A stretch of DNA of 64,000 nucleotides from Vicinamibacteria bacterium. Its GTDB lineage: Bacteria > Acidobacteriota > Vicinamibacteria > Fen-336. Shown here in pieces: positions 4,879-48,065 of this stretch; position 1 is the stretch's first letter, and each line of letters opens with the position of its first letter. The stretch is taken from assembly GCA_963578825.1 (NCBI GenBank), contig CAUZDW010000015.1, forward strand, positions 6,703 through 70,702, given 5' to 3'. The position numbers were made by a program, and so were the translations under genes. Below the pieces are notes generated by a model. The model did not search any database and was not told the DNA's origin. It was given only the letters and a program-made list of their open reading frames with translations.

Positions 4879-5668
4879 GTTGTCTCCGGTTCTCTGGGAC
4901 GTGGGTCTCGGCCGTGACCTCGCGATCCTGTGGGGTGACCTCGACGGGCGTCCGCATCGAGGTCGTGTCGCCCCGCGCCTCGCGCCACACCGCCAGCCAC
5001 GTGGCGGCAATGCCGGTCACCGCGCGAGAGTAGGAAAGCGAGGCCACCGCCCATGCGGGGGAACGGTAGTCGAGCCGACGATGGTCGACGAGGCGGCCGT
5101 CGCGAAACAGCTCCGTGCGGATCACCGGGGCCTGCGGGCGACTTCGATCGAGCATCGATTGCCACAGCTCGGGAAGGTGCTCGCGAGTAACCTCGAGGGC
5201 CTCGGAATCGTCGAGGACCACCGGCATCCGGTCGAGGTTGGCGTCGAGGAGCGCATAGTACTCGCGCGGCACCCCGGCGGGCCATCCCTCCGGGACGCCC
5301 ACGAGAATCGGATCGGCGATGTCGGCCGGGACACGCAGGAGCCCTCCGAGCCGCACGAGGCCCTCGCTGACCCGGCCCTCCTTCAAGAGCGTCACCACCC
5401 GGCCGGTCTCGTAGTCCAGCGCGGCCAGCGTCTCGGGTTGCAACCGCCCCCCGGGGATCTCCACTGCCAGCGCCCGGACGATGTCCGGCGGGAAGCGGTC
5501 GATCTCCCTCCGGATCTGCGTCTCTCGCTCCCCCAGCAGCCGCGACAGCGACCGCGGCAGCAGCCGGCGGGCGTCCCGAGACAGAGCCGTCATCGTCTCC
5601 GCGGGCCAGGCCAGGGCCGGATCCGGGAGGAGTGCGAGCAGGATGATCGGAAAGAGACTTCGCTTCAA
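4868..5668 (-). CDS. secreted hypothetical protein
   Basis: A TTG start (GTG alternative at 5674) gives MKRSLFPIILLALLPDPALA|WPAE, a clean Sec signal peptide. The same frame stays open upstream to the ATG at 5938, so a longer fused product cannot be excluded. Its end overlaps the purH start by 11 nt. Confidence 0.4.
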   Translation of the reverse strand: MKRSLFPIILLALLPDPALAWPAETMTALSRDARRLLPRSLSRLLGERETQIRREIDRFPPDIVRALAVEIPGGRLQPETLAALDYETGRVVTLLKEGRVSEGLVRLGGLLRVPADIADPILVGVPEGWPAGVPREYYALLDANLDRMPVVLDDSEALEVTREHLPELWQSMLDRSRPQAPVIRTELFRDGRLVDHRRLDYRSPAWAVASLSYSRAVTGIAATWLAVWREARGDTTSMRTPVEVTPQDREVTAETHVPENRRQHDR

Positions 5669-5670
5669 CG

Positions 5671-6263
5671 TCACTTCACGATCCGCGCCTTGAGCGACAC
5701 CTTTTCCCTTGCTCGAGTCCAGGCGGAAGTCCACCGCCCGGGCTCCCTTGTCACCCAGGATCTTCGCGGTCTGCTGTCCGATGAGCTGCCTGAAGCTCTC
5801 GTAGGCCGGCGCCTCCCCCTCGCCGAGGCACTGGCGCTCCTCCACGTAGCGCTGGTAAAGAGCCTGCACCTGCGCGTCGTCGGCTTCCACACTCCCGATA
5901 CGAAACTCACGACCGGTCCCTCCGCCGCCCGCGGGCATGCGGTGCTCCCGCTCGGGCGCCGGCGGGGGAAGGACGTCGGCCTTCAGCCCGTGGACACCGA
6001 AGGTCTTGCCCTCCTCCCGGGCCCGCAGTCTCTTCTGCCACAGCTCGTTGAACGTGTTGAAGCGGGCGGTGAGGGTCTGATAGCGGAAGCGCGCCGTGCT
6101 GTTGCTGATCTCCTGGTACGCGTACTCCCGAATCGTCTTCTCGACCCTGCGCTGCAGCTCGTTGGGCGGCTTGGCTTCTATGCCGGTGAAGAACAGCTCC
6201 CACTTGCGTATGCAGCTGGCGGATGTTGGTGTTGAGGAGATCGATGTCTTCGGAGAGACCCAT
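5671..6263 (-). pseudogene. conserved hypothetical protein with an apparent +1 frameshift; true pseudogene or sequencing indel
   Basis: The ATG at 6263 lies 2 nt after the TGA of the upstream ORF. It encodes MGLSEDIDLLNTNIRQLHTQ, then reads as garbage. The protein-like sequence continues in the +1 frame: WELFFTGIEAKPPNELQRRVEKTIREYAYQEISNSTARFRYQTLTARFNTFNELWQKRL...FRQLIGQQTAKILGDKGARAVDFRLDSSKGKG. Both alternative frames hit stops immediately before the TTG/GTG start of the next gene. Confidence 0.35.
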
Positions 6264-6673: not shown

Positions 6674-6774
6674 CGGGCGAGGATACCACGGGCCCCGCCT
6701 CCGGCGGCAGGCCGCGCACCGGCCCTCCGGCGTGCTCGCTCGGCGGAGGGTTCGGGCGTGTATAGTCTTCTTCC

Positions 6775-12843: not shown

Positions 12844-13874
12844 CAACCCGAGATCGCCACCCAGGCGGCGAACACCATGACCCAGACGGCCACCAGCGGA
12901 ATCAGCACCTTCCACCCCAGGTGCATGAGCTGATCGTAGCGAAAGCGGGGCAGCGTGGCCCGCAGCCAGATGAAGACGAAGAGGAAGAAAGCGACCTTCA
13001 AGCCCCACCACACGAAGCCCAGGGGGAACCCGGCCAGGGTCTCCGGCATCCCGGGGATGCCCGAGTGCCAGCCGCCGAGGAAGAGGTTTGCGAGCAGCAC
13101 GGTCACGGTGATCATGTTGATGTACTCGGCCATCTGGATGAGCGCGAAGCGCATCGACGAGTACTCTGTGTGGAAGCCCGCCACGAGCTCGCTTTCGGCC
13201 TCGGGGAGATCGAAGGGGGTCCGGGCGACCTCCGCCGTGGCTGCGAGGACGTACACGAGGAAGGCGGGGAAATGCAGGAAGACGTTCCAGTTCAGGAACC
13301 ACCCCGACTGGTCTGCAACGATGTCGTTGATGCGGAACGACCGGGCGGCCATGATCAGGGTCACCCAGGAGAACCCCAGCGCGAGCTCGTAGGAGAACAT
13401 CTGAGCCGACGACCTGAGGCCGCCGAGGAGCGAGTACTTGTTGTTGGCGGCCCACCCTGCGATCACGATCCCATAGACCCCGATGGCCGTCACAGCTAAG
13501 ATGAAAAGCAGCCCCACCTCGATGTCGGCGATCTGGATCTGAAGCCTCCGGCCGAAGGCCTGGAAGGGCGGGCCGTACGGGATCACCGCCGTCGCCAGGA
13601 GCGCCGTCGCCACAGCCACCACCGGAGCCGCCAGAAAGGCCCACTTGTCGGCTGCCGCGGGCATCGCCTCTTCCTTGAAGAAGAGCTTGATCCCGTCGGC
13701 GACGGGCTGGAGGATGCCGAAGGGGCCGGTCCTGTTCGGGCCGAGCCGATACTGCATGAGGGCGAGGGTGCGCCGTTCGACCCACGTCATGAGCGAGAAA
13801 CCCCCGAGCAGCGCGCTGATCACGATGACGATGGTGACGACGGCGATCAGGAGCTCCTCGGCCAGGGATGTCAC
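12843..13874 (-). CDS. nuoH: NADH-quinone oxidoreductase subunit H
   Basis: 343 aa: MQYRLGPNRTGPFGILQPVADGIKLFFKEE...FDLPEAESELVAGFHTEYS, a canonical NuoH/ND1. Confidence 0.9.
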   Translation of the reverse strand: MTSLAEELLIAVVTIVIVISALLGGFSLMTWVERRTLALMQYRLGPNRTGPFGILQPVADGIKLFFKEEAMPAAADKWAFLAAPVVAVATALLATAVIPYGPPFQAFGRRLQIQIADIEVGLLFILAVTAIGVYGIVIAGWAANNKYSLLGGLRSSAQMFSYELALGFSWVTLIMAARSFRINDIVADQSGWFLNWNVFLHFPAFLVYVLAATAEVARTPFDLPEAESELVAGFHTEYSSMRFALIQMAEYINMITVTVLLANLFLGGWHSGIPGMPETLAGFPLGFVWWGLKVAFFLFVFIWLRATLPRFRYDQLMHLGWKVLIPLVAVWVMVFAAWVAISG

Positions 13875-15706
13875 GCGGGGACCGCCTTGCCCGTCCTGGC
13901 CCCGGCGCTGGCCTTCGCCTTCGCCTTTACTTCTTCAAAGGTGGGCGCCACCGACTTCCAGCAACGCTTCTCGCGAACGTGGTACTCGAACTCCTCCCGA
14001 AACTTCGTGAGCGACGACCGGGGAGGAGCGATTGCGGCGTCCCCGAACGGGCAGACCGTCTTTCCCGCGATCGAGTCCGTGATCTTCCAGAGAAGGTCCA
14101 GGTCCTTCTCCTCCGCCTCGCCCGCCTCGATTCGCTCGAGCAGCCGCAGCATCCAGCCCGTCCCCTCCCTGCAGGGGGAGCACTTGCCGCAGGACTCGTG
14201 CTTGTAGAAGTACGAGAGGTTCTTGGCCATCCACACCATGCAGGTGGAGTCGTCCATCACGATGGTCCCCGCCGAGCCGAGCATCGAGCCCGCTTTGGCC
14301 ACGCTGTCAAAGTCCATGGCGATGTCGATCTCGTCCGGCGTGAGGACCGGGGTCGACGAGCCCCCGGGAACCACCGCCTTGAGCTTGCGGCCGTTCCTGA
14401 GCCCCTGGGCGTATCCCTGATCGAAGATCAGGTCACGGAGGGTGATCCGCCCCATCGGGGCCTCGTAGCTTCCCGGACGCACGACGTGGCCGCTGATGGA
14501 GTAGAGCTTGGGTCCCCCGTTCTTCTCGGTCCCGTAGCTGGCAAACCACTCCGCCCCCCGCTCGAGGACGAGAGGCACGTTGGCCAGCGTCTCCACGTTG
14601 TTCACGATCGTCGGACAGCCGTACACCCCGACCACCGCCGGGAAGGGAGGCTTGATGCGAGGCTGGCCGCGCTTTCCTTCCAGGGACTCGATGAGGGCCG
14701 TTTCCTCGCCGCACTCGTACGAGCCGGCGCCGCGATGGACCCACACGTCCACGCCGGTGCCGAGCACGTTCTTGCCGACGATTCCCGCCGCCCGCGCCGT
14801 GGCGAGTTCCACGAGGGTGCGCGCACCCTCGTGGAACTCGCCACGGATGTAGATGTAGGCCGTCTTCGAACGGATCGCGTGGCACGAGACGACGATGGCC
14901 TCGATGAGCCGATGCGGGTCCCGCTCGAGGATCACGCGGTCCTTGTAGGTGCCAGGCTCGCTCTCATCGGCGTTGACGCAGAGATAGCGGGGCTTCGGGT
15001 TGTCCTTGGGCAGGAAGCCCCACTTCATCCCCGTGGGGAACCCGGCCCCTCCGCGACCGCGAAGGCCCGAGCGCTTGACCGTCTCGATGATGTCCCCGGG
15101 CTCCAGCTTCAGCCACTCGCCCAGCTTCGCGTAGCCCCCGGAGGCCTTGTACACGTCGATGGAGGTGGAGTTCTCCTTCCAGACGTTCTGAAAGAGGATG
15201 TGCTCGCCGGGGCTCTTCGGCCAGTCGAAGGTGCGCCGAACCGTCTCGCCGGCGAGGACGTGGTCGATGTCCGATTCCGAGGCGTGCTCGAGCCACTCGC
15301 CGTTCACCTGCACGGCCGGCGCCCCACCGCAGGCGGCGAGGCATTCGACCTCCTTGACCGTGAACTTCCCGTCCCCGGTGGTGCCCCCGGCTTCGATCCC
15401 GAGCTTGCGGCAGGCGTGCCCGAGGAGGCCCTCCGAGCCGCCGAGGGCACACGACAACGTGGTGCAGACCTCGATGAGGGTCTTTCCCTTCGGCTGGAGG
15501 TGGAACATCGTGTAGAAGCTGGCGGTGTCCTTCACCTGCGCGGGGCTCAGGTCCAGAAGCGTCCCGACGTACTCCATCGCCTCGGGGCTGATCCAGCCCT
15601 CCTGCTCCTGAACCAGCCGGAGCGCCGGCAGGAGGGCGGAGCGCTTCACCGGGTAGCGGGCGACGGTGTCCTCGAAGGTCTTCAGGTTGTCGGGGGTGAG
15701 CTCCAT
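13871..15706 (-). CDS. nuoEF: fused NADH dehydrogenase flavoprotein module, NuoE-like thioredoxin-fold [2Fe-2S] domain plus NuoF
   Basis: N-terminal 170 aa carry NuoE motifs CTTLSCALGGS...ECLAACGGAPAVQVNG. The same frame continues without a stop into NuoF: GRGGAGFPTGMKWGF, CNADESEPGTYKDR, ESCGKCSPCREGTGW. I took the start as the MELTPDNL ATG at 15704-15706, 4 nt after the nuoA stop. The stop overlaps the nuoH start by ATGA. Confidence 0.85.
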   Translation of the reverse strand: MELTPDNLKTFEDTVARYPVKRSALLPALRLVQEQEGWISPEAMEYVGTLLDLSPAQVKDTASFYTMFHLQPKGKTLIEVCTTLSCALGGSEGLLGHACRKLGIEAGGTTGDGKFTVKEVECLAACGGAPAVQVNGEWLEHASESDIDHVLAGETVRRTFDWPKSPGEHILFQNVWKENSTSIDVYKASGGYAKLGEWLKLEPGDIIETVKRSGLRGRGGAGFPTGMKWGFLPKDNPKPRYLCVNADESEPGTYKDRVILERDPHRLIEAIVVSCHAIRSKTAYIYIRGEFHEGARTLVELATARAAGIVGKNVLGTGVDVWVHRGAGSYECGEETALIESLEGKRGQPRIKPPFPAVVGVYGCPTIVNNVETLANVPLVLERGAEWFASYGTEKNGGPKLYSISGHVVRPGSYEAPMGRITLRDLIFDQGYAQGLRNGRKLKAVVPGGSSTPVLTPDEIDIAMDFDSVAKAGSMLGSAGTIVMDDSTCMVWMAKNLSYFYKHESCGKCSPCREGTGWMLRLLERIEAGEAEEKDLDLLWKITDSIAGKTVCPFGDAAIAPPRSSLTKFREEFEYHVREKRCWKSVAPTFEEVKAKAKASAGARTGKAVPA

Positions 15707-15710
15707 TGCG

Positions 15711-16061
15711 CTACCAGTCCATGGCTCCGACTCTCCATTCGTAGACGAAGCCGACACCGAGGACGAAGAAGAAGCCGCCCATGACGCTCAGGCCGTAGAC
15801 GCCCAGCTCGTCGAGGATGAGGGCCCACGGATAGAAGAAGGCCGTTTCCACGTCGAAGAGAATGAACAGCATGCACACGAGGTAGAACTTGACCGGGAAC
15901 CGCTCCCGGGCTGTCCCCACCGGGGGCACACCGCACTCGTACGTGCTCAGCTTCCCCTCGTCCGGACGAGGACGCCCCAGGAGGTTCGACATGGCCAGGG
16001 TGAAAACGCCGAAGCCGACTGCTACCGCGCCCAAGATCACGATCGGGAGGTAGCTGGGCAT
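15711..16061 (-). CDS. nuoA: NADH-quinone oxidoreductase subunit A
   Basis: 116 aa: YECGVPPVGTARERFPVKFYLVCMLFILFDVETAFFYPWA. First gene of the minus-strand operon; divergent from pyk. Confidence 0.85.
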   Translation of the reverse strand: MPSYLPIVILGAVAVGFGVFTLAMSNLLGRPRPDEGKLSTYECGVPPVGTARERFPVKFYLVCMLFILFDVETAFFYPWALILDELGVYGLSVMGGFFFVLGVGFVYEWRVGAMDW

Positions 16062-22803: not shown

Positions 22804-22878
22804 GGGCGCTTAACTCAGCGGTAGAGTGCCACCTTCACACGGTGGAAGTCGCAGGTTCGAACCCTGCAGCGCCCACCA
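22804..22878 (+). tRNA. tRNA-Val (anticodon CAC)
   Basis: GGGCGCT/AGCGCCC acceptor stem, ACTC/GAGT D-stem, CCACC/GGTGG anticodon stem with loop TTCACAC, GCAGG-TTCGAAC-CCTGC T-arm, then discriminator A and an encoded CCA. Folded by eye. Confidence 0.85.
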
Positions 22879-31597: not shown

Positions 31598-32592
31598 GCG
31601 GACTTCCGGCGGACGGCCTCGCGATCGAGATCGCCCGTCCCGGCCCCCCCGACGTCCTGCGGCCGATCCGCAGGCCCGTGGACCCACCGGGCCCGGGCGA
31701 GATCCTGCTGCGCGTGGCGGCCGCGGGCGTCAACCGCCCTGATCTTCTCCAGCGCGAGGGCCGGTATCCGCCACCGCCCGGGGCAAGCGACATCCCCGGC
31801 CTCGAGGCGGCGGGGACCGTGGTGGCTGTGGGGGACGGCGTGAGCCGCTGGAGCGTGGGCGACGAGGCCTGCGCGCTGTTGGCCGGCGGCGGCTACGCCG
31901 AGTACTGCCTGGCACCGGCCCCTCAGGTGCTGCCCCTCCCCCGGGGCATGGCGGCGCTCCAGGCCGCCGCTCTTCCCGAGGCCGTCTTCACCGTCTGGAC
32001 CAACGTGTTCGAGCGCGGGCGGCTCGCTCGGGAAGAAACCCTGCTGGTCCACGGGGGGACGAGCGGCATCGGCACCACCGCCATCCAGCTCGCCCGGGCC
32101 CGGGGGGGCCGTGTGTTTGCCACGGCCGGCACCGCCGAGAAGTGCGCTGCATGTGAGCGTCTCGGCGCCGTGCGGGCGGTCAACTACCGCGAGGAGGATT
32201 TCGTTCCGATCGTGAAGGAGCTCACCGACGGACGAGGCGTGGACGTCATTCTCGACATGGTCGGTGGGCGCTACATGAGCCGAAATCTCGACTCGCTGGC
32301 TCGAGACGGGAGACTCGTCCTCATCGCGTTCCTCGGGGGCGCGACGGCCGAGGTCGACTTTCGGCCGGTGCTCCAGCGCTGGCTCACCATCACGGGCTCG
32401 ACGCTACGGCCCCGATCCATCGAGGAGAAGGGTCGGATCGCACGTGCCGTCGAGACCGAGGTCTGGCCTCTCTTCGAATCGGGAGCCATGGTCCCTGTCA
32501 TTCACGCGACCCTGCCCCTGGCGCAGGCGGCGGAGGCGCATCGCCAGCTGGAAGAGGGCGGGCACATCGGCAAGCTCGTGCTCGTCCCCTGA
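31594..32592 (+). CDS. qor: NADPH:quinone oxidoreductase (MDR/zeta-crystallin family)
   Basis: A GTG start overlaps the dipeptidase stop (GTGA). AGVNRPDLLQREGRYPPPPGASDIPGLEAAGTVVAVGDGV...LVHGGTSGIGTTAIQLARARGGRVFATAG is the MDR Rossmann GxxGxxG signature. Confidence 0.8.
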   Translation: MSGLPADGLAIEIARPGPPDVLRPIRRPVDPPGPGEILLRVAAAGVNRPDLLQREGRYPPPPGASDIPGLEAAGTVVAVGDGVSRWSVGDEACALLAGGGYAEYCLAPAPQVLPLPRGMAALQAAALPEAVFTVWTNVFERGRLAREETLLVHGGTSGIGTTAIQLARARGGRVFATAGTAEKCAACERLGAVRAVNYREEDFVPIVKELTDGRGVDVILDMVGGRYMSRNLDSLARDGRLVLIAFLGGATAEVDFRPVLQRWLTITGSTLRPRSIEEKGRIARAVETEVWPLFESGAMVPVIHATLPLAQAAEAHRQLEEGGHIGKLVLVP

Positions 32593-32670
32593 CAATCGAT
32601 CTGCACCTTGGCGCGCCGCGCCGCGCCGGCCTCTCGCCCGAGCGAGCCCGGCGTGCCCACCGAAGAGTCG

Positions 32671-34197
32671 TCAATCCTTCAGCGGCTCGATCCACGGTGC
32701 AGCACCTAGGCGATGCGGCTCGGCGGCCAGGTCGACCTTGGGGTCGATCAAGCGCTGACGCTCCCGACCGTTCAGACTGACCTCGACGTTCGTCCGGACG
32801 CTCACACCCGGGTGGCCGCGCGCCTCCAGGTTCTGCGCCAGATGCCGGGCGAACTGGTGGATCATGTGGGGTCGCGTGGCCATCTTCCTGTACTGCCACC
32901 GTTCCAGCAGCTCCCTCGGATCGATCGTCCAGTTTCGCCCGCTCTTGGGATCCGTCACGCGGAACCTCGCCGTGCCTCTCTTGCTGCGCAGCTTCATGTG
33001 CCAGGAGAAGTTGTGACCCTCCTCCGTCCAGCTCACGGCGCCCGGAATGACGAAGTGGCGCAGAGGGATGACGACCTGCAGCGTGAACCAGACGACGACC
33101 AGCGCGCACGTCAGCCCGTGTCCAGTGGGCGCACCTCGCTCGAGCGTCGCTCCATCTCGGTCGAGGTCGCGGCGGGCGAGGTCGGGTGAGTGGCGTCGAG
33201 GGCTCGAGCGCTCGCCTGGCCCTTCCTTCCCTCGGAGCGCCGCGGCCGTGGTTGCCAGCCCTACGGGCACGAGCTCCAGCTCTTTCCGGAGCCAGGCGAC
33301 TGCCAAGCCCAGCGCCACGCCCCCCGACCAGGCGAACCGCGCCCTCGCATCCGGTGCCGCCTGAAGATCGCGGACCAGGCGGCGCGGCCAGTCAGGCGGG
33401 AAGAACAGCGTCGTGGCGGCGAGGGCCAGCCAGGGGAAGATCCCGATCGAGAACAAACGATCGTTCATGAGGTGGAACGACGTGACGAGCGCGAACATGA
33501 GCGGACGCGTCCGACGCCAGAGAAGCGCTGGGACAGCCAACAGATCCAGCAGCAGCCCCCCGTAGGCGAAGAGGTAGACGACCCACTCGTCGGTGAACAG
33601 CGGGCCGATCAGCGGGAAGCTGGCCCGCCTGGCCAGCCAGGTGCGGAGCGGCTCTCCGCCAAGCCAGTCGCCGTTGATCTTCGCGACGCCACCGAAGAAG
33701 TAGACAGATGCCCATCTGTCCGGCCAGCAGCACCGGGCCCCAGGCCGGGATCCGATCGGCCCTCAGCCGGGGGCGGATCAGCGCGTCCACCGAAACAGCG
33801 CGGTGGGCCGGCACGAAGATCATCAGGAAGCTGATCAGAATGACGAAGTAGAAGTGATTCAGGTACCGCGCCTGCTCGAGCAGGAAGACGTAGGTAAACC
33901 CCAGGAAGAAGAGCGCGGCGCTCAGTCGGTAGAGAAAGCCCAACATGATGAAGAGTGCGAGGGCGCCGAGCGCGTAGAAATGGACGTACATCCCGTCGCC
34001 CGACCACGGACGAACCCACTCGAAGAACGGGTAGGTGAAGTGGTAGCAGGGCTCGAGCCAGTAGCGCGCGATCCAATCGTGATCGAGGTAACGCTTTACC
34101 TCCCAGAGCATCACGAGCCCGAACGCCACGCGGAAGAAGACGACACTCGCGATGTCGACTGGGCGAAGGAGCGCGGCGGCCAGGCGATGGGACGTCA
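32671..34197 (-). pseudogene. HTTM domain protein (vitamin K-dependent gamma-carboxylase-like membrane protein), split by a frameshift
   Basis: The N-terminal frame (GTG at 34197) reads RPVDIASVVFFRVAFGLVMLWEVKRYL...VHFYALGALALFIMLGFLYR...PAWGPVLLAGQMGI. The C-terminal frame reads VYFFGGVAKINGDWLGGEPLRTWLARRASFPLIGPLFTDEWVVYLFAYGGLLLDLLAVPALLW...FHLMNDRLFSIGIFPW. The frames join at about 33695-33720 with a 1-2 nt indel. Confidence 0.7.
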
Positions 34198-34429
34198 CGC
34201 CCGCCGCCTCCAGGCAGGGCTCTGAGGCGGGCGAGCAAGCGGCGAGAGGATGTCGGGCTGCAGGCGTGAAACCAGCTGCGTCGCTCGAGGCTGACAGCGC
34301 CACGAGCTGAAGGATGGTAGGTCGAGGCGGCGCACGGATTCAACCAGGGGGTTCTTCAGCGACCAGGACTCACCGGTGCAGACGTATCAGACTCAGCGGA
34401 GCCCACAGATCGAAGGAGCCCGGCGATGT

Positions 34430-34843
34430 CTACAGGTGCAGAAATCGATCCCGCTCCTCGGGAGCGGAGAGCGTGCAGGCTTCGGCCTGGCCGAACCACC
34501 GGTATCGGTGCGCCGCAACGTAGTCGTACAGGCGATCCCGGACGAAGCGGGGTACGATCACGCCGACCCAAAGCAGGCTCCAGGGAAGGCCGAGCCGGCG
34601 GAGGACCTGCAACGCGGCCGTGGACCGCTGGAAGGCCTGGCCGCTCGACACGAGCGCGAACGAGTCGAGGGTGTCGATGGGGAGATCGTGAGCGCGAAGC
34701 AGCGACCGGCCGACATCGCTCTGCAGTGGAGCGAATCGAAAACGCCGCCGTCGGTCGCTGGCGATGACGAACGAGACCCAGCGGTCACAGAGACCGCAAG
34801 TGCCGTCGAAGAGTATGACCGGCTCGCCGCTCATCGGATTCAT
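34430..34843 (-). CDS. thiol-disulfide oxidoreductase DCC family protein (DUF393)
   Basis: PVILFDGTCGLCDRWVSFVIASDRRRRFRFAPLQSDVGRSLL is the DCC-family CxxC motif and N-terminal block. Its position next to the HTTM gene matches the known HTTM–DCC pairing. Confidence 0.75.
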   Translation of the reverse strand: MNPMSGEPVILFDGTCGLCDRWVSFVIASDRRRRFRFAPLQSDVGRSLLRAHDLPIDTLDSFALVSSGQAFQRSTAALQVLRRLGLPWSLLWVGVIVPRFVRDRLYDYVAAHRYRWFGQAEACTLSAPEERDRFLHL

Positions 34844-34970
34844 CGTAACCCCGTTGCTCCGCCGGCGGACAGTCCGTGGCGCCGCGGCATATGGCTCCCG
34901 TGGCCTCGGGTTGCCGGCTGGCGGTTGAGGTATAGTCGAGAGTTGCGGGACGTGCTTTCAGGAGAGTTAA

Positions 34971-37682
34971 TTGAAGGGGCTCATCGACCGATTCCTCAAC
35001 AAGCCTGAATGGCAGGATTCGGACCCAGTCGTCCGGGCCGAGGCGGTGCTGCGCCTGCCCTCGTCCGAGCGCGAAGCTCTCGTGGCCATCGCCCAGGACG
35101 ACGACGAGCCTCGCGTTCGCCGGGCAGCGGCCAGGAAGCTGTCCGACACCGACACCCTGGTGAAGCTGGCGCGCTCCGATCCGGACGACGGCGTCCAGGA
35201 AGAGGCCGCCTCGCGACTCGTGCACCTCGTCGTTCACGCGACCGAGGAGGACGCGGCAACGACCGCCCTGGCCGCGTTGAGCCAGCCGAAGCATCTGTCG
35301 GTCGTGGCTCGCTCCGCGGCGCTCGAGCCGATCCGTGAGGCGGCGATCGGGGCCATGACAGACCCGCGCGCGCTGGCTGCGGTGGTGCGCGAGGCCGGCG
35401 ACGGCCCAACGCGCCTCCTGGCTCTCGGGCGGATCGAAGACGTCCCCACCCTCCTCGCGATCGCCCTCAAGTCGGACCAGAAGTCCATCGCAGTGGCCGC
35501 CGTGGAGCGGCTGAGCGACCGCGAGGCCCTCCAGGCCGTGTCCGAGAACGCCCGGGCCGGCTCCGCCGCGCGGCGCGCGAGGGCCCGGCTCGAGCCGGAT
35601 GAGCCCGCCGACGAGCGTCCCGCGAGTGCGCTCCCCTCTCCGGAGCAGGACGAGAAGGAAAAGGAAACGTACGAGCGGGCGCGAGCGCACCACGAGCAGG
35701 AGGCCGCGGAGCGCGCCGAGGCCCTGGCCGCCCGGACTCGGATCTGCGAATCGGTCGAAGGCGCCCAGAGCGAGACGATCCCCTCGGCTCTCGAGCAAGC
35801 CCGGGCGGAGTGGGAGACGCTGACGCCCCTCTCGAGCGCAGAGGCCGAGACCGCAAAGGCACGCTTCGACCAGGCCCTCGGTGCAGGCGAACGACGCCAT
35901 GCCGCCTTCCTCGCGGGGCTCGCCCGACGCGACGAGATCACGGCCCTCGTGACCCAGGCCGAAGAGCTGGCGGCCACCGAGAACGCCGGCGACCGATCGG
36001 CCTGGGCCGCGCTGAAGAAGAAATGGGGGGAGCTGGCCGCTTCTGCGGATCAGCCCGATCTTCGCACCCGCTTCGAGAGAGCGGCGGCAGGTTACGACGA
36101 GCGCCAGCGCGCCAGCCGCGAGGAGAGCGAGCAGAAGGACCGCCAGAACCTCGTCCGTCTCACCAGGCTCGCCGAGAAGGCCGAGGCCCTGCTCACGAAG
36201 AAGGACGCAGGGTTGCGCGACGCCGACCACGCCTCGCGGGAGATCCGCTCCGCACTGGACCATCCCGGGCACTTCCCCACCCGCGAGGATCGCGAGGGGA
36301 CCCTCGCGCGTCTCGAGACCGCCCGGAAGGCTCTCTACCCACGAGTGCAACAGCTTCGAGAGGATGCGGAGTGGAAGCGCTGGGCCAACGTGTCCGTGCA
36401 GGAGGAGCTGTGCACACGCGCGGAGGCGCTCGCCGAGGAGGAGGAGAACCTCGGGGAGGTCGCCGGCAAGCTGCGCGACCTCGACGCACGCTGGAAGCAG
36501 GCCAGAGAGGCGCCGAAGGACAAGTCCGAGGAGCTCTGGAAGCGATTCAAGACGGCACGAGACGTGGTCAAGGGCCGCGTGGACGCCTACTTCGCACAAC
36601 CGAACAAAGGGTTCGCGGAAAACCTCCAGAAGAAAGAAGCCCTCTGTGAGAAGGCCGAGGCCCTGGCCGATTCCACCGAGTGGGTGAAGACCGCCGCGGT
36701 GCTGCGCGGCCTGCAGGCAGAGTGGAAGGAGATCGGCCCGGTCCCTCGATCCCGGTCCGGCAAGATCTGGACCCGCTTCCGCCAGCCGTGCGATCGCTTC
36801 TTCACTCAGTGGCAGGCGCACCGGGGCGAGCAGAGCAAGGGCTGGGCCGAGAATCTCGTGCTGAAAGAGTCGCTGTGCGAGAAGGCCGAGGCCGTAATGG
36901 ATTCCACGGACTGGGAGCCTGTGGCCAGCGAGCTCAAGCGCCTCCAGACCGAATGGCGGACGATCGGGGCCGTCAAGAACAGCCGCTCCGACAAGGTCTG
37001 GCGGCGCTTTCGCAAAGCCTGCGACCATTTCTTCGATCGATACAAGCACCGCGACACCCTGGCCCTTCAGGCCGTGCAGGAGGCGAGAGAGCAGATCTGT
37101 GCGGATCTCGAGGGCCTCGTGCCGGAAGAGGGCGCCGAGACCACTGCCCCCGACGACCTCGTGGCCCGGGTGCTGGCGGCGCAGACGGCGTGGCGGCAGG
37201 CCGGGGAGCTGCCCCGTGACGCCATGGCGTCTCTGGCCGAGCGCTTCGCCCAGGTTCGCGATCGGCTCGTGACGCTCCATCCATCCACGTTTTCCGGAAC
37301 CGAGCTCGACCCCGAGGCCAGCCGGCGAAAAGCGGAGAAGCTGGTCGTCCGAGTGGAGGCCGCCCTGGAGGAAAACGAGGCGAAGCGAACCGCGACCGCC
37401 GCCGAGACCACCGAGGATCTCGCGGCACGGCTCCGCGAGGCGTTGGCCGCCAACACCATCGGAGGGCACGAGGCGGTCGAGGCCCGGTGGGCCTCCGCCA
37501 CTACCGAGGTCGAGTCCGCCCAGGCCGCGTGGCGGCGGCTCAGTCCCTTGACCGGCCCGGAAGCCACCGCGCTGGCGGAACGCTTCGACCGGGCCTGCAC
37601 GCAGTTTTTCGAGAAGCGTCCGCGTCCCGAGCCGGCACGACGCTCCGAGGGCGCGAAACGGCGGCCCCGCAGGCGCGCCTGA
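34971..37682 (+). CDS. DUF349 repeat protein with N-terminal HEAT/PBS-lyase-like repeats
   Basis: N-terminal repeats DDDEPRVRRAAARKLSDTDTL / SDPDDGVQEEAA are followed by at least 5 DUF349-like repeats: ELWKRFKTARDVVKGRVDAYF, GKIWTRFRQPCDRFF, DKVWRRFRKACDHFF, SAWAALKKKWGEL. 903 aa. The opposite-strand 973-aa ORF is GC artefact. Confidence 0.6.
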   Translation: MKGLIDRFLNKPEWQDSDPVVRAEAVLRLPSSEREALVAIAQDDDEPRVRRAAARKLSDTDTLVKLARSDPDDGVQEEAASRLVHLVVHATEEDAATTALAALSQPKHLSVVARSAALEPIREAAIGAMTDPRALAAVVREAGDGPTRLLALGRIEDVPTLLAIALKSDQKSIAVAAVERLSDREALQAVSENARAGSAARRARARLEPDEPADERPASALPSPEQDEKEKETYERARAHHEQEAAERAEALAARTRICESVEGAQSETIPSALEQARAEWETLTPLSSAEAETAKARFDQALGAGERRHAAFLAGLARRDEITALVTQAEELAATENAGDRSAWAALKKKWGELAASADQPDLRTRFERAAAGYDERQRASREESEQKDRQNLVRLTRLAEKAEALLTKKDAGLRDADHASREIRSALDHPGHFPTREDREGTLARLETARKALYPRVQQLREDAEWKRWANVSVQEELCTRAEALAEEEENLGEVAGKLRDLDARWKQAREAPKDKSEELWKRFKTARDVVKGRVDAYFAQPNKGFAENLQKKEALCEKAEALADSTEWVKTAAVLRGLQAEWKEIGPVPRSRSGKIWTRFRQPCDRFFTQWQAHRGEQSKGWAENLVLKESLCEKAEAVMDSTDWEPVASELKRLQTEWRTIGAVKNSRSDKVWRRFRKACDHFFDRYKHRDTLALQAVQEAREQICADLEGLVPEEGAETTAPDDLVARVLAAQTAWRQAGELPRDAMASLAERFAQVRDRLVTLHPSTFSGTELDPEASRRKAEKLVVRVEAALEENEAKRTATAAETTEDLAARLREALAANTIGGHEAVEARWASATTEVESAQAAWRRLSPLTGPEATALAERFDRACTQFFEKRPRPEPARRSEGAKRRPRRRA

Positions 37683-37699
37683 AGGGCCCCGGCCCGACG

Positions 37700-38857
37700 T
37701 TGCCACCCCGCCGCGGCGACCAGGTCCTCGAGCTGTTCGTCCTGGCGTCCGATCCCACCTTCGAGACGGCGAGCCTGCTGGCGTCGTTCAGGAACGCCAG
37801 GGTCCTGGCCCCGTTCCCGCGCCGGGGTGGCGAGGCGGGAGCCCGCTGGCAACGGATCATCCGAGCACACGAGCGGACCCTGGCCGTGCTCGAGGGGCGG
37901 GCCCGAGGGCGCTCGCTCCCCCGAGGCCGCGAGCTCCGTGCCTGGGGGCGAGACCTCTTCGAGCTGCTCTTTCCCGGGGACGTGCGCCGCCTCTACGACG
38001 TCGCCCGGTCGCTCCAGCCCAGTGGCGTCCTCGACATCGTGTTCACGTCGATGCTCGACTGGGTCGCGGACAAGCCGTGGGAGCTCGCCTACGACCCATC
38101 CCGCCGGACGTTCCTCGCGACCTCCGACGTCAACTTCGTCCGCAACGTCTTCACGACGGTCCCGGCGGAGGTCCGGCCACGACGGCGCGACCGCCTCCGG
38201 ATCCTCGTGGCCACGTCCGAGCCCAGAGGGACGACCCCGCTGGCCGCCCGGGAGGAAGCGGCCCTGGTAAAACGGGGATTTCGCCCGCTCGTCGATGCGG
38301 GCCTGGCCTCTGTGAGCGTCCTCCCGGGAGCCACACCCGAGGCTCTGCACCGCCGGCTGAGGGATCAGGCCGTCGACGTCCTCCACTACGTCGGCCACGG
38401 GCGCTACGACGAGGACGCCGGCGAGGGATGCCTCTTCCTGGAAGACGGGAAGGGGCGGGTCAAGCCGGTGGATGCCGCTGCCTTTCGCCAGATCGTCGGT
38501 CGCCGAGGGGTGGATCTCGTATTTCTCAATGCCTGCGAGAGCGGTCGCGGGGGGAGAGTGGACTTCAATCGAGGCATGGCTTCCGCCCTCGTCGCCGCAG
38601 GCGTCCCCGCGGTCGTGGCCAACCAGTACGCCGTGCTGGACTCCGCCGCCACGACGTTCGCCCGGGAGCTCTATGCCGCCCTCGCCCGCGGAGGCTCCCT
38701 GGGACACGCGACCCGGGAGGCCCGCGTGTCGCTCGGGAATACGGTGGGCACCGGAGCGATCGACTGGGCGGTGCCGGTCCTGTACGCCCGAGACCCCAGC
38801 GCCACACTTCGACCCGCCCGGAGAAAGCGCACCACGAAAGCGAGGGCGCGGCGTTGA
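37700..38857 (+). CDS. CHAT-domain protein (caspase-like peptidase family)
   Basis: DVLHYVGHGRYDE...VDLVFLNACESGRG is the CHAT His/Cys dyad context (xHYxGHG ... LNAC). A TTG start at 37700 lies 18 nt after the DUF349 stop. The track ORF begins upstream in garbage. Confidence 0.7.
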   Translation: MPPRRGDQVLELFVLASDPTFETASLLASFRNARVLAPFPRRGGEAGARWQRIIRAHERTLAVLEGRARGRSLPRGRELRAWGRDLFELLFPGDVRRLYDVARSLQPSGVLDIVFTSMLDWVADKPWELAYDPSRRTFLATSDVNFVRNVFTTVPAEVRPRRRDRLRILVATSEPRGTTPLAAREEAALVKRGFRPLVDAGLASVSVLPGATPEALHRRLRDQAVDVLHYVGHGRYDEDAGEGCLFLEDGKGRVKPVDAAAFRQIVGRRGVDLVFLNACESGRGGRVDFNRGMASALVAAGVPAVVANQYAVLDSAATTFARELYAALARGGSLGHATREARVSLGNTVGTGAIDWAVPVLYARDPSATLRPARRKRTTKARARR

Positions 38858-40035
38858 CCCGGGCGCTCGTCGGCCCGCTCCTGCTGGCACTCGCGCTGCG
38901 CGCCGGAGCGATCCTCGTCTCCGACCGGGTCGTGGCCGACGTCGAACGCTACCAGCGGGTGGGCCGCCATCTCATCGACGTCTCCTGGAACCCCTACGAA
39001 ACCGCGCGCCTCTACCCCTACCCGCCCGTGTGGGCGGCGGCCGAGGCCGGGGCGGAGTGGCTCGACAGGCGAGGCCTGGTCTCCTTTCCGATTGGCGTCA
39101 AGCTCCCCGTGCTGTTCGCCGACCTGCTGCTCGTGGCCGCCCTGGTGGCCGCCGGGCGTGCAGGGCGAGCGCCTCCGGCGGCGGCCTGGATCTACGCCGC
39201 TCATCCGGTCAGCGTGCTGATCACGGGCGTTCACGGGCAGTTCGATTCCATCGCTCTCCTCTTCGTTGTGCTGGCGCTGGGGGCGCTCAGCCGCGGCAGG
39301 CGCGACGTCTCGGCGCTGTCTCTCGCCGCGGCCATCGCCACGAAGTCGTTCCCGGTGGTGCTCCTCCCGTTCCTCGCCCTCGGGGGTGGTGCGTCGTGGC
39401 GGCAGGCGGCACGCTACGGGGGCCTGGCGCTGGGGTCGGTGGCCCTCCTGCTCCTGCCTTTCGCACTGGCGGACCACCCCGCGCTCCGCCGAGAGCTCCT
39501 GGCGTACTCCGGGATCGCGGACTTCGGCTGGACCGGCCTCGTCCGCGGCCTGTCCTGGCTCGCCAGCGGTGATCTCGCCCGCAGTGAGGCCCGCTTCTGG
39601 CCCGCGGCATCGGTGGCCTCCAAGGCCCTGTTCCTCGGCGCCTGGAGCGTCCTCGTCGTTGCGGTGCGCCGCGGACGGATCGTCCTCACTCCGGAACGGG
39701 CATGCCTGGCCACGCTCCTGGCCTTTCACGTCCTCTACGGGTTGCAGAGCGCGCAGTACCTTCTCTGGGTCGTGCCGCTCGGTGTGCTCCGGCCAGGTCG
39801 CGCACTGACAATGCACGCTGCGGCCGCGACCGCCGGGCTCGTGGGCTTCTACCTCTTCCTGGCGCCCGGGGTCCTCGTGCCCCGACCGCTCGACGAGACG
39901 GCCCTCGTGTGGGCGGGCCGTCTCTGGGTCGTCGGAGTCGGCGCGACGTTCGTGGTGTGTGCGATCTGGCTCGCCGGGTTGGTGCGCGAGGGCCTCGACC
40001 CGCCCCGCCTACGGGGCCTTGCGCGCGGCGATTGA
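38854..40035 (+). CDS. GT87/DUF2029-like polytopic membrane glycosyltransferase
   Basis: A TTG start overlaps the CHAT stop (TTGA). DVSWNPYETARLYPYPPVW, followed by 9-10 TM segments, matches DUF2029/GT87 mannosyltransferase-like proteins. Confidence 0.5.
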   Translation: MTRALVGPLLLALALRAGAILVSDRVVADVERYQRVGRHLIDVSWNPYETARLYPYPPVWAAAEAGAEWLDRRGLVSFPIGVKLPVLFADLLLVAALVAAGRAGRAPPAAAWIYAAHPVSVLITGVHGQFDSIALLFVVLALGALSRGRRDVSALSLAAAIATKSFPVVLLPFLALGGGASWRQAARYGGLALGSVALLLLPFALADHPALRRELLAYSGIADFGWTGLVRGLSWLASGDLARSEARFWPAASVASKALFLGAWSVLVVAVRRGRIVLTPERACLATLLAFHVLYGLQSAQYLLWVVPLGVLRPGRALTMHAAAATAGLVGFYLFLAPGVLVPRPLDETALVWAGRLWVVGVGATFVVCAIWLAGLVREGLDPPRLRGLARGD

Positions 40036-40881
40036 GGCAACGTGGCGACCGTCGTACTCGCCTTCACGGTGCCGGATCACGTCGAGCGGGGCCACGAGCC
40101 GCGGCAGCTCTCCCGGCTCGAGGAGGTAGTCCGGGTTCGACGGCGACCCATGCTGCGCCTGCTCCTTCGTGAACGTCTCGTAGATCAAGACGCCCCCGGG
40201 GCGCAACGCCCGGACGAGCGCGGGGAAAAGTGGCCGGTGCAGATAGCGGAAGACGATCACGAGCCCCCACTCCCCGTCGCCCAGGTCGACGTCACCGTTC
40301 TCGAGATCGACGACCGCGGCGTCCAGCGGCAGACGAAGCCGGCGGGCGAGGGCATCCAGCTTCTCCATGCGGCCGGCGTCGCGATCGATCGCGTGCACCA
40401 AGAAGCCCGCGTCGGCGAGCAGCAGGGCGTGACGGCCACGCCCGCAGGCCACGTCCAGGGTTCGTGCGCCGGCAGGAACGAGTGACGTGTGCGCCATGAG
40501 CCACGACGCCGGGCCCGCGATGGGCGCGGGGCCTGTCTCGACCGTTCCCTTCCAAGCCTTCAGTCCTTCCGTCATGTTGAAGACGTTGGAGACACCCGCG
40601 TCGCCGAGACGGCGGGCCGCGCGATACGAGCGCACGCCGTCGGCACAGTAAACCAAGACCGGCCGGCCATCGTCGGGGAGAACCGCCGGAGCCGAGGCCA
40701 CCATCGCCAGCGGCAGGAGAAGCGAGCCCGGAACGTGGCCGTCCTCCTCGTGCTCTCCGGCCGTGCGCACGTCGAGTGCCACGGCGCCCTCGGCGAGCAT
40801 CTTCTCCGCCTCGGCAGGCGAAACGTCCTGGAACGGCCGGGACGCGCGGTCTATAGTCTCCGGGGACACGGTGCCGCACAT
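40009..40881 (-). CDS. rhodanese domain fused to a TehB-like SAM-dependent methyltransferase
   Basis: The N-terminal half is a rhodanese with active-site loop VLVYCADGVRS. The C-terminal half shows SAM motif I LDVACGRGRHALLLADAGFLVHAIDRD, EWGLVIVFRYLHRP, PGGVLIYETFT and a TehB-type end GRHVASIAARK. Confidence 0.65.
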   Translation of the reverse strand: MCGTVSPETIDRASRPFQDVSPAEAEKMLAEGAVALDVRTAGEHEEDGHVPGSLLLPLAMVASAPAVLPDDGRPVLVYCADGVRSYRAARRLGDAGVSNVFNMTEGLKAWKGTVETGPAPIAGPASWLMAHTSLVPAGARTLDVACGRGRHALLLADAGFLVHAIDRDAGRMEKLDALARRLRLPLDAAVVDLENGDVDLGDGEWGLVIVFRYLHRPLFPALVRALRPGGVLIYETFTKEQAQHGSPSNPDYLLEPGELPRLVAPLDVIRHREGEYDGRHVASIAARKAP

Positions 40882-46442: not shown

Positions 46443-46642
46443 GAGGACAGTGTGACCTGATGCTCCCCGCAGGAAACTGCGGCAGGAACCCCCCGTGTCG
46501 GACAGGCGACTCCGGCCGGCCGCGACAGCCTATCACCTATCACCGCAGAGGCCTGGCGCGGCATGACAATTTTCGGGCTCGCCAGAAATCCGACGGGGTG
46601 GAGCCGGGTTGCCCGCGTCCGAAGCCTCGGCTACATTCGCTC

Positions 46643-46651
46643 AGGAGGAGG
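46643..46651 (+). promoter_or_regulatory. Shine-Dalgarno AGGAGGAGG 7 nt upstream of the VKOR–DsbA TTG start
   Basis: tcAGGAGGAGGtcgcttcTTG read directly at 46641-46661. Confidence 0.5.
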
Positions 46652-46658
46652 TCGCTTC

Positions 46659-48065
46659 TTGAAGACGCCCCATTTCACCCGCCTCGCGGCTGCGCTGGGT
46701 CTATGCCTGGCGGGCGCGGCGATCTCCGGCCTGCTCCTATTGCAGCACCACGGCGAAGGCCGGGCGGTGGCCGCGGTCGACCAGGTCTGCGGCGACAGCG
46801 CGGACGGACCCAGCGGCTGTGAGACGGTTGCCCAGAGCTCCTGGTCGTCGATCGCAGGCTTTCCCCTTGCGGGCCTCGGCCTGATCTTCTATCTGGCGCT
46901 GGCTCTCCTTCTCGCGCCGACTCTCCTGGTCTCGGGTGACCAACGGACAACGCTGTCGGGCTTCGTTGTGCTGGCCCTGGCCCTGGGTCTTCTCGTCGAC
47001 CTGCTGCTCCTGGGCGTCCAGGTTTTCGCCCTCGGAAGCTTCTGCATTCTGTGCGTCATCACATACGCCCTCAGCGCGGGCGCCCTCTTCGCGCTGCTGC
47101 CGGCCTGGCGCGGCGCTCTCGCCCCGGCGGCCGCGCTCGGGCACCGGGAGGGACGGCTGGCCCTGGCGGGCTGGGCGCTCGGTGCGGTGGCCGTCGGCGC
47201 GGCCGTCCTCGGGCTGGAAGCAACTCTCGACCACCGCGAAGCCGGGCGGCAGATGGCGCTCCTCGGGTCACCGGCGCCCGCTTCCAGGCCGGAGACCGAG
47301 TCCGAGGTGACGGCGTCTTCGAGCCAGGCTCTCACCCCGGCCCCGCCGTCACCAACCACCACCACCGCCCAGGCGGAGACAAGCGATTCGGAGCACTGGA
47401 AGCAGCGGGCCCAGGAGCTCCAGCAGACCCTCGACGATCCCCAGAAGCTGGAGCAGTACTTCTCGAAGAAGGCCCAGCGAGAGTACGACTCGGCCGCGGC
47501 GGAACCGATCGACCTGGAGAACGTGCCGGTGAAGGGCCCGCCGGAGGCGCCGGTGAAGATCGTCGAGTACTCCGACTTTCTGTGCCCCTTCTGCCGCAAC
47601 CTGGCCGCGGGGCTCTCGCAGTTCGTGCCCCAGGCGGGGGGGCGGGTGGCCGTCTATTTCAAGAACTATCCCCTCGACCAGGATTGCAACGAGAGCCTGC
47701 CCCGTTCGACCCATCCCGGCGCCTGCGACCTCGCCAGGGGCGCGATCTGCGCCCACAACCAGGGGAAGTTCGAGGCGTACCACGACCGCGTGTTCTCCGC
47801 AGAGGGCCTCCACGATCCCGGAGTCGCCGAGGTTGTCCGCCTGGCCGAAGAGGCAGGCCTCAACCCGGCGGCCATGCAGGGCTGCCTCGAGGACCCGGCG
47901 ACCGAGGACACCCTTGCCGCCCAGATCGCCGAGGCGCGTCGCCTGGACGTTCGGGCCACACCCACCCTCTACGTCAACGGGAAGAAGTTGCCGCGCATCA
48001 AGGACCTGATGCCCGTGGTGGACAGCGAAGCCCGGAAGAAGGGCTTCCCCCCGCTCAAACCCTAG
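46659..48065 (+). CDS. vitamin K epoxide reductase (VKOR) domain fused to a periplasmic DsbA-like thioredoxin domain
   Basis: VKOR half: loop cysteines CGDSADGPSGCE and active-site FCILCVITYA in a 4-5 TM core. C-terminal half: KIVEYSDFLCPFC plus TPTLYVNGK. A TTG start has a strong SD. Confidence 0.8.
   Translation: MKTPHFTRLAAALGLCLAGAAISGLLLLQHHGEGRAVAAVDQVCGDSADGPSGCETVAQSSWSSIAGFPLAGLGLIFYLALALLLAPTLLVSGDQRTTLSGFVVLALALGLLVDLLLLGVQVFALGSFCILCVITYALSAGALFALLPAWRGALAPAAALGHREGRLALAGWALGAVAVGAAVLGLEATLDHREAGRQMALLGSPAPASRPETESEVTASSSQALTPAPPSPTTTTAQAETSDSEHWKQRAQELQQTLDDPQKLEQYFSKKAQREYDSAAAEPIDLENVPVKGPPEAPVKIVEYSDFLCPFCRNLAAGLSQFVPQAGGRVAVYFKNYPLDQDCNESLPRSTHPGACDLARGAICAHNQGKFEAYHDRVFSAEGLHDPGVAEVVRLAEEAGLNPAAMQGCLEDPATEDTLAAQIAEARRLDVRATPTLYVNGKKLPRIKDLMPVVDSEARKKGFPPLKP

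Follow-up and report, generated by a model that had tools for sequence, protein, structure and literature searches.

Proteases with the caspase-like fold and His/Cys dyad that also characterise the CHAT family are known from several defence and signalling systems, including the SAVED-CHAT filament (PDB entry 8tl0), Csx29 of Craspase (7zoq), DdvA (8rot), HetF and separase; in separase and the TPR-CHAT proteins the protease comes with a large helical-repeat element. A clan-CD peptidase and a GT-C-fold membrane protein, PIGK and PIGU, are paired in the core of the eukaryotic glycosylphosphatidylinositol (GPI) transamidase. The polyprenyl-phosphate-mannose-dependent mannosyltransferases PimE, MptA and MptB of the Corynebacteriales are likewise of the GT-C type. 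Here we describe a locus in which a HEAT/DUF349 repeat protein, a CHAT peptidase and a GT-C glycosyltransferase are encoded by three consecutive genes. It lies in a 64,000-nucleotide stretch of DNA with a G+C content of ~69% (the window; positions 6,703 to 70,702 of contig CAUZDW010000015.1, assembly GCA_963578825.1) from a Vicinamibacteria bacterium. The trio is conserved in a clade of uncultured Vicinamibacteria, and we consider it slightly short of an even chance, at a probability of roughly 0.45, that it is a lineage-specific, co-translated operon with a functional partnership between the CHAT and GT-C proteins.

The window CHAT protein differs from the defence and signalling proteases in having no fused sensor, TPR or transmembrane domain and no CRISPR or sigma-factor genes as neighbours. 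Its helical repeats, unlike those of separase and the TPR-CHAT proteins, are present in trans, on the separate HEAT/DUF349 protein, and are of the DUF349 type. The glycosyltransferase resembles PimE, MptA and MptB in its matches to GT87 and PF26314, its length of ~390 residues and its many transmembrane helices. It is further similar to PimE in its predicted structure and in an invariant DxxxY motif that follows the first transmembrane helix (TM1). In contrast, PDB searches with its sequence revealed no match to PimE and nothing else of use, and the window organism is an acidobacterium. Acidobacteriota are not known to contain phosphatidylinositol mannosides or lipomannan. Among characterised GT87 genes, no case of coupling to a peptidase is known.

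The three open reading frames are located on the forward strand, where the initial annotation had placed them. Gene 1 (34971..37682) codes for a soluble helical repeat protein of 903 residues, in which a HEAT-like region at the N-terminus is combined with six DUF349 repeats, gene 2 (37700..38857) for a 385-residue stand-alone CHAT cysteine peptidase (clan CD, caspase-like), and gene 3 (38854..40035) for a 393-residue polytopic GT-C glycosyltransferase of the GT87 / MptA_B-like type. Their G+C content at third codon positions (GC3) is 0.85, 0.85 and 0.87, respectively, compared to 0.55–0.77 for overlapping alternative frames. All three thereby carry the GC3 pattern of real genes in the window, and Pfam domain matches give further support.

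The start codons of all three genes are supported by alignments of homologues, and no alternative start was found that would uncouple the genes. A Shine-Dalgarno-like AGGAGAG (34961..34967) lies ~4 nt 5′ of the TTG start of gene 1, and the alignment with the called gene of a related locus (L001) begins at residue 1. Genes 1 and 2 are separated by 17 nt (37683..37699), rather than the 18 nt given originally, with the DUF349 stop codon at 37680-37682 and the CHAT TTG at 37700. A convincing ribosome-binding site was not seen in this spacer; AAGGG is present 13 nt upstream. The CHAT start lies just 5′ of a conserved VLELFVLA motif in an alignment of 14 CHAT orthologues, the homologues P0001, P0090 and P0101 begin at the same point, and TTG 37700 is the sole in-frame start between 60 nt before the DUF349 stop codon and the first conserved CHAT residues. 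The TGA stop codon of the CHAT gene is overlapped by the TTG start of gene 3 in the sequence TTGA (38854..38857), as had been noted, with GAGGG 7 nt upstream. In 16 out of 17 orthologues the N-terminus aligns with that of the glycosyltransferase, M-(T/R)RAL-GP-LLAL.

A divergent gene upstream and a convergent gene downstream mark the borders of the operon. A scan for promoters and terminators found no sigma-70-like sites and was uninformative; internal terminators above chance were not found, the weak terminator-like matches within the coding sequence being near chance level. The geometry of the locus suggests that the three genes are co-transcribed and that translation of genes 2 and 3 may be coupled. 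Gene 3 and the convergent rhodanese-methyltransferase gene (40009-40881, reverse strand) overlap by 27 nt at their 3′ ends (40009-40035).

To follow the trio in other genomes, a broad CHAT alignment was scanned against one genome per GTDB species, giving a best set of 80 loci (L005–L084). Partner genes were sought by tblastn with the three window proteins. Four loci fetched via CHAT homologues (L001–L004) and three loci at the edge of the clade (L085, L086 and L087) were added. The order DUF349–CHAT–glycosyltransferase, with all three genes on one strand, is kept in 20 of 21 related loci from metagenome-assembled genomes (MAGs) of Vicinamibacteria or Acidobacteriota. It is present in L001–L004, where the third gene is annotated as MptA_B_family or GT87, in 14/14 loci with at least 62% CHAT identity (L005–L018, all Acidobacteriota or Vicinamibacteria MAGs), and in two of the three clade-edge loci (L085 and L087). 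Linkage of the trio, which the initial annotation had left to a neighbourhood search, is thus conserved within the Vicinamibacteria clade; it is missing from the 66 nearest CHAT loci outside it.

The remaining clade-edge locus, L086, contains a 5′-truncated CHAT gene and the glycosyltransferase gene beside dnaE fragments and has no DUF349 gene, an arrangement that reflects either a rearrangement or an assembly join. Its CHAT gene (3997-5951) is without the first ~137 codons. In L085 (782-4632) the DUF349 gene is present as two partial copies in tandem, and the CHAT gene is broken into two parts. The oddities of both loci are probably long-read assembly errors or rearrangements in MAG contigs. 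A 1272-residue open reading frame in L014, considered as a possible DUF349–CHAT fusion, comprises the CHAT domain only and lies in another frame than the DUF349 gene, and was therefore discarded as a long-frame artefact of high-G+C DNA.

The overlap between genes 2 and 3 occurs at the same place, as NTGA, in 18/18 loci examined, the GTG or TTG start lying exactly 3 nt ahead of where the CHAT stop codon ends. It is kept despite a difference at the C-terminus of the CHAT protein, which in one subgroup carries a basic tail of 14–20 residues that is missing in the others. The spacer between the DUF349 and CHAT genes ranges from 2 to 67 nt in the related loci. Sequence identities to the window proteins across the clade are 62–87% for CHAT, 61–76% for the glycosyltransferase and 55–71% for the DUF349 proteins encoded upstream of CHAT; the high CHAT identity is as expected for what appears to be a stably kept gene. 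Close CHAT homologues are many (62–98% identity among the best 120 listed), the few named ones being Vicinamibacteria, and the best 120 homologues of the glycosyltransferase are clade members only. Clustering of open reading frames recovers the trio in 18/18 loci and the flanking gene clusters in 10–14 of the 18. Upstream, the flank is formed by an M19 dipeptidase gene, a GT2 gene or others; downstream by a rhodanese-methyltransferase, NUDIX or LigB gene.

The CHAT domain (PF12770) spans residues 83–360 of the gene 2 protein (106 bits against a cut-off of 24, E-value 3e-30). In the same Pfam scan a match to Peptidase_C25 remained below threshold and no match to Peptidase_C13 was listed. The catalytic residues His233 (HYVGHG; codon 38396..38398) and Cys279 (LNACES; codon 38534..38536), reported as an intact dyad from the start, are invariant in 21 aligned sequences, distant relatives included (alignments A1 and A2), and the protein is likely to be a catalytically competent endopeptidase. 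The AlphaFold model is weak overall (pLDDT 61) and poor outside the core. The core itself (residues ~166–350, pLDDT 70–88) shows a caspase-like α/β fold, which matches the SAVED-CHAT filament 8tl0 with an E-value of 1e-10 and also Csx29, the anti-sigma factor DdvA, caspases, MALT1 and metacaspases. Entry 8tl0 is the sole PDB sequence match of the CHAT family profile as well. The N-terminal 160 residues are not reliably modelled; structure prediction of this region, which had been suggested as a check, gave pLDDT values below 50 for residues 1–43 and most of 92–162 and allows no conclusion about its fold. Judged from the alignments, the N-terminal region appears to be an integral, conserved part of this CHAT subfamily. 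A signal peptide, transmembrane segment or anchor was not found, the maximum 19-residue Kyte-Doolittle average of 1.49 falling within the caspase core. The N-terminus contains acidic residues and does not resemble a Sec or Tat signal, and the protein is predicted to be cytoplasmic.

The GT87 match of the gene 3 protein is a marginal pass (27.5 bits against a cut-off of 25, E-value 3e-6) and is accompanied by a weak PIG-U match in Pfam; the MptA_B_family domain PF26314 is precomputed on most orthologues. The protein contains ~9–10 hydrophobic segments. Its AlphaFold2 model (pLDDT 87, pTM 0.88) has best matches in the PDB, as identified with Foldseek, that are all of the GT-C fold, in agreement with the original assignment as a DUF2029/GT87-like membrane protein. 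The top match is the GPI mannosyltransferase I PIG-M/Gpi14 (9wno, TM-score 0.64), followed by PIGU chains of human GPI transamidase in second and third place (TM-scores 0.57–0.58; 7w72_U, 0.58, E-value 6e-5). Further matches are ALG6 (0.62), ALG3 (0.60) and PimE (9dm5, 0.54).

Directly after TM1, residues D24, R25, D29, R32 and Y33 are invariant in 18 orthologues of the glycosyltransferase. The motif D29-V-E-R-Y33 (38938..38952), containing a candidate catalytic base and its Tyr partner, is located at the start of a helix comprising residues 27–42 of the model. Both D58 and Y62 of PimE are essential residues; the former, which sits at the tip of its first juxtamembrane helix, has been proposed as the catalytic base (PMC12041525). 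The spacing of D29 and Y33 equals that of D58 and Y62, a comparison of spacing made without residue-level alignment, and the two pairs are probably equivalent. Because this catalytic-type DxxxY motif is kept, the protein looks like an active enzyme and not like a PIGU-type non-catalytic subunit, and gene 3 most likely codes for an active inner-membrane GT-C enzyme. Five orthologues (P0322, P0371, P0372, P0378 and P0382) contain a Ser/Pro-rich insertion of 10–70 residues (ADSSSPGQTKL) after an invariant SAQYLLW motif (alignment A3, columns ~318–390); the insertion is missing from the window protein.

In gene 1, DUF349 (PF03993) matches six stretches with a total of 246 bits (E-value 2e-74). When residues 1–240 were scanned alone, HEAT_2 was detected at residues 15–81 (35013..35213; E-value 1.5e-6, 28.8 bits against a cut-off of 27.7), and the original DUF349/HEAT label therefore holds. 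A hydrophobic segment that could serve as a signal peptide or anchor was not found (maximum 19-residue Kyte-Doolittle average 1.23), and this protein, too, is predicted to be cytoplasmic; a PDB search with its sequence gave nothing useful. The sole experimentally studied DUF349 protein found in the literature searched is MSMEG_2731 of Mycobacterium smegmatis (Mycobacterium counterpart Rv2731), which binds DNA in single- and in double-stranded form as well as RNA and interacts with ribosomal protein S1 in a 1:1 ratio (PMC3348880). The window protein resembles it in being a soluble, helical and charged protein with DUF349 repeats, but is twice as long, with six repeats instead of three and an additional N-terminal HEAT region.

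In the favoured interpretation, the glycosyltransferase would take a sugar, probably mannose, from a polyprenyl-phosphate donor and add it to an envelope glycolipid or glycan that it extends at the periplasmic face. Through the 4-nt stop/start overlap the CHAT peptidase would be made in a fixed ratio with the glycosyltransferase. It would probably work on the cytoplasmic side of this enzyme, or else act on some protein belonging to the same pathway. The HEAT/DUF349 protein, which would be translated from the common transcript, could be a scaffold or adaptor, a regulator, or a substrate of the peptidase; direct contacts of CHAT with the glycosyltransferase or with the DUF349 protein are conceivable in such an arrangement.

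Several observations weigh against a functional partnership. A shared substrate is not obvious, because the active site of GT-C enzymes is periplasmic and the CHAT protein is apparently cytoplasmic. The nucleic-acid and S1 binding of MSMEG_2731 would by analogy point away from envelope biology, the CHAT model is weak outside its core, and the DUF349 gene is absent from L086. No gene fusion linking parts of the trio was found. The linkage is confined to a narrow clade represented by 14 GTDB species representatives, all of them MAGs, and the flanking synteny within this clade is fairly well kept, such that adjacency could be merely inherited; for this reason trio conservation is weaker evidence than it appears. 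Finally, a DUF349 or GT-C gene was detected by tblastn within 8 kb of none of the 66 next-closest CHAT loci (45–57% identity), and searches of the same loci with a glycosyltransferase profile hidden Markov model and with the DUF349 protein in phmmer, both at E-values up to 1, revealed nothing either. The evidence for joint function thus comes from synteny in one clade.

It is quite possible, if short of probable, that the trio is frozen synteny, i.e. a set of co-transcribed neighbours with unrelated functions inherited from the ancestor of the clade. The genes would then code for a DUF349 protein associated with nucleic acids or ribosomes, a peptidase of the cytoplasm and a glycosyltransferase of the envelope, with the overlap persisting for lack of counter-selection. 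The missing link in 66/66 out-of-clade loci, the narrowness of the clade, the properties of the mycobacterial DUF349 protein and the mismatch in topology between the CHAT protein and the glycosyltransferase active site all agree with this explanation, as does a high background synteny, with M19 peptidase, rhodanese-methyltransferase, UbiD and DsbA flanks also kept in 10–14 of 18 loci. It accounts less well for the presence of the trio in every intact locus while the flanks change, for the survival of the 4-nt overlap in 18/18 loci across the insertion or deletion of the CHAT tail, and for the similar degree of constraint on all three proteins. On balance we prefer the functional partnership, tentatively.

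The CHAT family outside the clade sheds light on the origin of gene 2. A HMMER scan of 1.84 billion representative sequences yielded 22,985 relatives of the CHAT protein, 2,042 of them at E-values of 1e-30 or lower. The best matches beyond its own cluster are mostly proteins of ~850–1200 residues, in which the whole 385-residue query (residues ~5–375) aligns at positions ~550–930 with 45–57% identity. In these large relatives the CHAT module is preceded by a DUF7379 domain (PF24096) at ~200–380, and in most of the 66 out-of-clade loci, which belong to Terriglobia, Thermoanaerobaculia, Nitrospira, Burkholderiales, Bradyrhizobium, Planctomycetota, Horticoccus and others, the module lies inside such DUF7379 proteins of ~1150 residues. 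These DUF7379-CHAT proteins (~1100–1200 residues) contain the closest relatives of the entire window CHAT protein, its N-terminal extension included, but carry an N-terminal DUF7379 and mostly a C-terminal domain of ~200 residues, neither of which is present in the window protein, and their neighbourhoods, unlike the window locus, are without DUF349 and GT-C genes. From these alignments the Vicinamibacteria CHAT gene appears to be the stand-alone version of a module that elsewhere is embedded in multidomain proteins with different neighbourhoods. Because its nearest relatives are embedded modules, the window protein may derive from a DUF7379-CHAT protein; the direction of module evolution is one that we infer.

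One of the large relatives, P0127, shows LLIHG and THSRG motifs, which we take to be typical of α/β hydrolases; a PDB search with its sequence identified no relatives, and no mention of DUF7379 was found in the literature searched. The layout of the ~1150-residue family (P0127, L019–L084) comprises the N-terminus, DUF7379 (HG...THSRG), the CHAT module and the C-terminal domain of ~200 residues, as for example in L020 (6336-9791) and L055 (6264-9761), and its spread includes the Opitutales-like Horticoccus. In the closest out-of-clade subgroup (54–57% identity; L032, L039, L042, L049, L051, L057, L068, L072 and L077) the CHAT-containing protein is without the C-terminal domain, and in some of these loci the longest CHAT reading frame has only ~350–415 residues. 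The CHAT gene of this subgroup (e.g. L051, 9067-12173) is followed by genes for a GH44 glycoside hydrolase and a polysaccharide deacetylase, an adjacency that is probably lineage synteny. Conserved partners of the out-of-clade CHAT genes were also looked for by clustering of open reading frames, which gave only lineage-specific synteny, such as the GH44 and polysaccharide deacetylase genes of a Thermoanaerobaculia-like subgroup or the separate blocks of Nitrospira, and nothing in common with the window.

A more far-reaching form of the partnership is that the CHAT and GT-C proteins form an obligate membrane complex, a compositional counterpart of the PIGK–PIGU core with the HEAT/DUF349 protein as adaptor. 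In such a complex the GT-C protein would bind or produce the substrate of the caspase-like enzyme, and the activity of the complex could consist of proteolytic control of envelope glycolipid synthesis or of transpeptidation between protein and glycolipid. We regard this as unlikely.

Still less probable, and in our judgement only marginally credible, is a GPI-transamidase-like machine, in which a complex of a clan-CD peptidase and a PIG-U/PIG-M-like GT-C protein cleaves a protein and attaches a glycolipid to it, with PIGK–PIGU in eukaryotes and PorU in type IX secretion as analogues. The ranks of PIG-M and PIGU among the structural matches of gene 3, the weak PIG-U match of the glycosyltransferase, the weak match of CHAT to Peptidase_C25, the gingipain/PorU family, and the strict overlap of peptidase and GT-C genes in gene order (NTGA, 18/18 loci) are all suggestive of such a machine. 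The likeness is nevertheless compositional only. The model of gene 3 is indeed PIGU-like (TM-score 0.58), but this similarity is generic, being common to all GT-C enzymes, PimE included. The transamidase-like explanation fails because of the predicted topology, since nothing in the CHAT protein, neither a signal peptide nor a membrane anchor, would place it outside the cytoplasm; because of the peptidase family, which is CHAT with a weak C25 match instead of the C13 (legumain/PIGK) type; and because of the retained catalytic-type Asp, the DxxxY motif being that of an enzyme rather than of a PIGU-like scaffold. In addition, counterparts of GPAA1, PIGT and PIGS, the other transamidase subunits, are not present in the operon.

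The chromosomal context bears on a role in defence or cell fate, at which the initial annotation had hinted. The window contains genes for PurH, SelA, NADH dehydrogenase subunits, pyruvate kinase, PBP1A, tRNA-Val, the transporter Vut_1 and DsbA. Nearer to the trio are an M19 dipeptidase gene, an HTTM/VKGC-like gene and, beyond the trio, the convergent rhodanese-methyltransferase gene, UbiD, VKOR-DsbA and CstA. The long-range gene order of L001 is the same, and the window represents core chromosome with housekeeping genes rather than a defence island. SAVED, TPR or other sensor domains and cas or CBASS genes were not found in or near the CHAT locus, and the HetF profile (NCBIfam NF045509) scores 23.3 bits against a cut-off of 1200. 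An anti-phage or abortive-infection module with the CHAT protease as effector is accordingly given hardly any credence: many bacterial CHAT proteases do act in defence, and SAVED-CHAT, Csx29 and BovA rank highest among the matches in PDB and PADLOC, but the PADLOC SAVED_CHAT match is limited to the CHAT part (profile positions 67–277), the glycosyltransferase has no PADLOC match and the DUF349 protein only marginal ones (PDC-M11B, E-values 0.0015–0.006), and across the clade the locus is a stable, single one of conserved synteny in housekeeping surroundings, with 62–87% CHAT identity.

Other features of the window concern its neighbouring genes. The divergent gene upstream of the operon (32671-34303, reverse strand) is an HTTM / vitamin-K-dependent γ-carboxylase (VKGC)-like gene that is split into two frames, with HTTM profile positions 2–156 in 33395-34303 and HTTM positions 210–259 plus the VKGC lumenal domain in 32674-33540. 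The split represents a frameshift, due to either a pseudogene or a sequencing error. This gene is missing from the syntenic L001, where the M19 peptidase gene directly precedes the DUF349 gene. It is flanked by stretches of ~1.07 kb (31598-32670) and ~0.67 kb (34304-34970) without a convincing coding frame, possibly left over from the insertion by which the gene arrived; a forward-strand open reading frame at 34376-35008 has a GC3 of only 0.65. A VKOR-DsbA fusion protein is encoded ~12 kb away (46461-48065, forward strand), such that VKGC-like and VKOR genes occur in one neighbourhood. Within a partial nuo cluster (8.5–15.8 kb) a 638-residue open reading frame (13874-15787, reverse strand) codes for a fused NuoE-NuoF, with a NuoE-type 2Fe-2S thioredoxin-like domain and the FMN and 4Fe-4S domains of NuoF. 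A tRNA-Val (CAC) gene (22804-22878, forward strand) lies between the PBP1A and Vut_1 genes and is the only RNA found in the whole window with Rfam and ARAGORN.

Each of the three genes is a new member of a known family, and the coupling of CHAT to a GT-C protein is an arrangement undescribed in the searchable literature, as had been proposed. The term CHAT domain was not found there together with DUF2029, or with glycosyltransferase and Acidobacteria, nor, among the matches listed, together with GT87, GT-C, mannosyltransferase or PIG-U. Cultured, named Vicinamibacteria were not found among the best 80 CHAT loci, and experiments will need heterologous systems because the trio occurs only in uncultured MAGs.

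None of the three genes has a known function in Acidobacteria. If their adjacency is inherited synteny only, the trio amounts to an ordinary operon of hypothetical proteins, specific to one lineage of uncultured soil bacteria. If, on the other hand, the CHAT and GT-C proteins truly cooperate, they would represent a new way to tie regulated proteolysis to the synthesis of envelope glycoconjugates, and would offer a handle on the function of DUF349 and on the very large, uncharacterised DUF7379-CHAT family.

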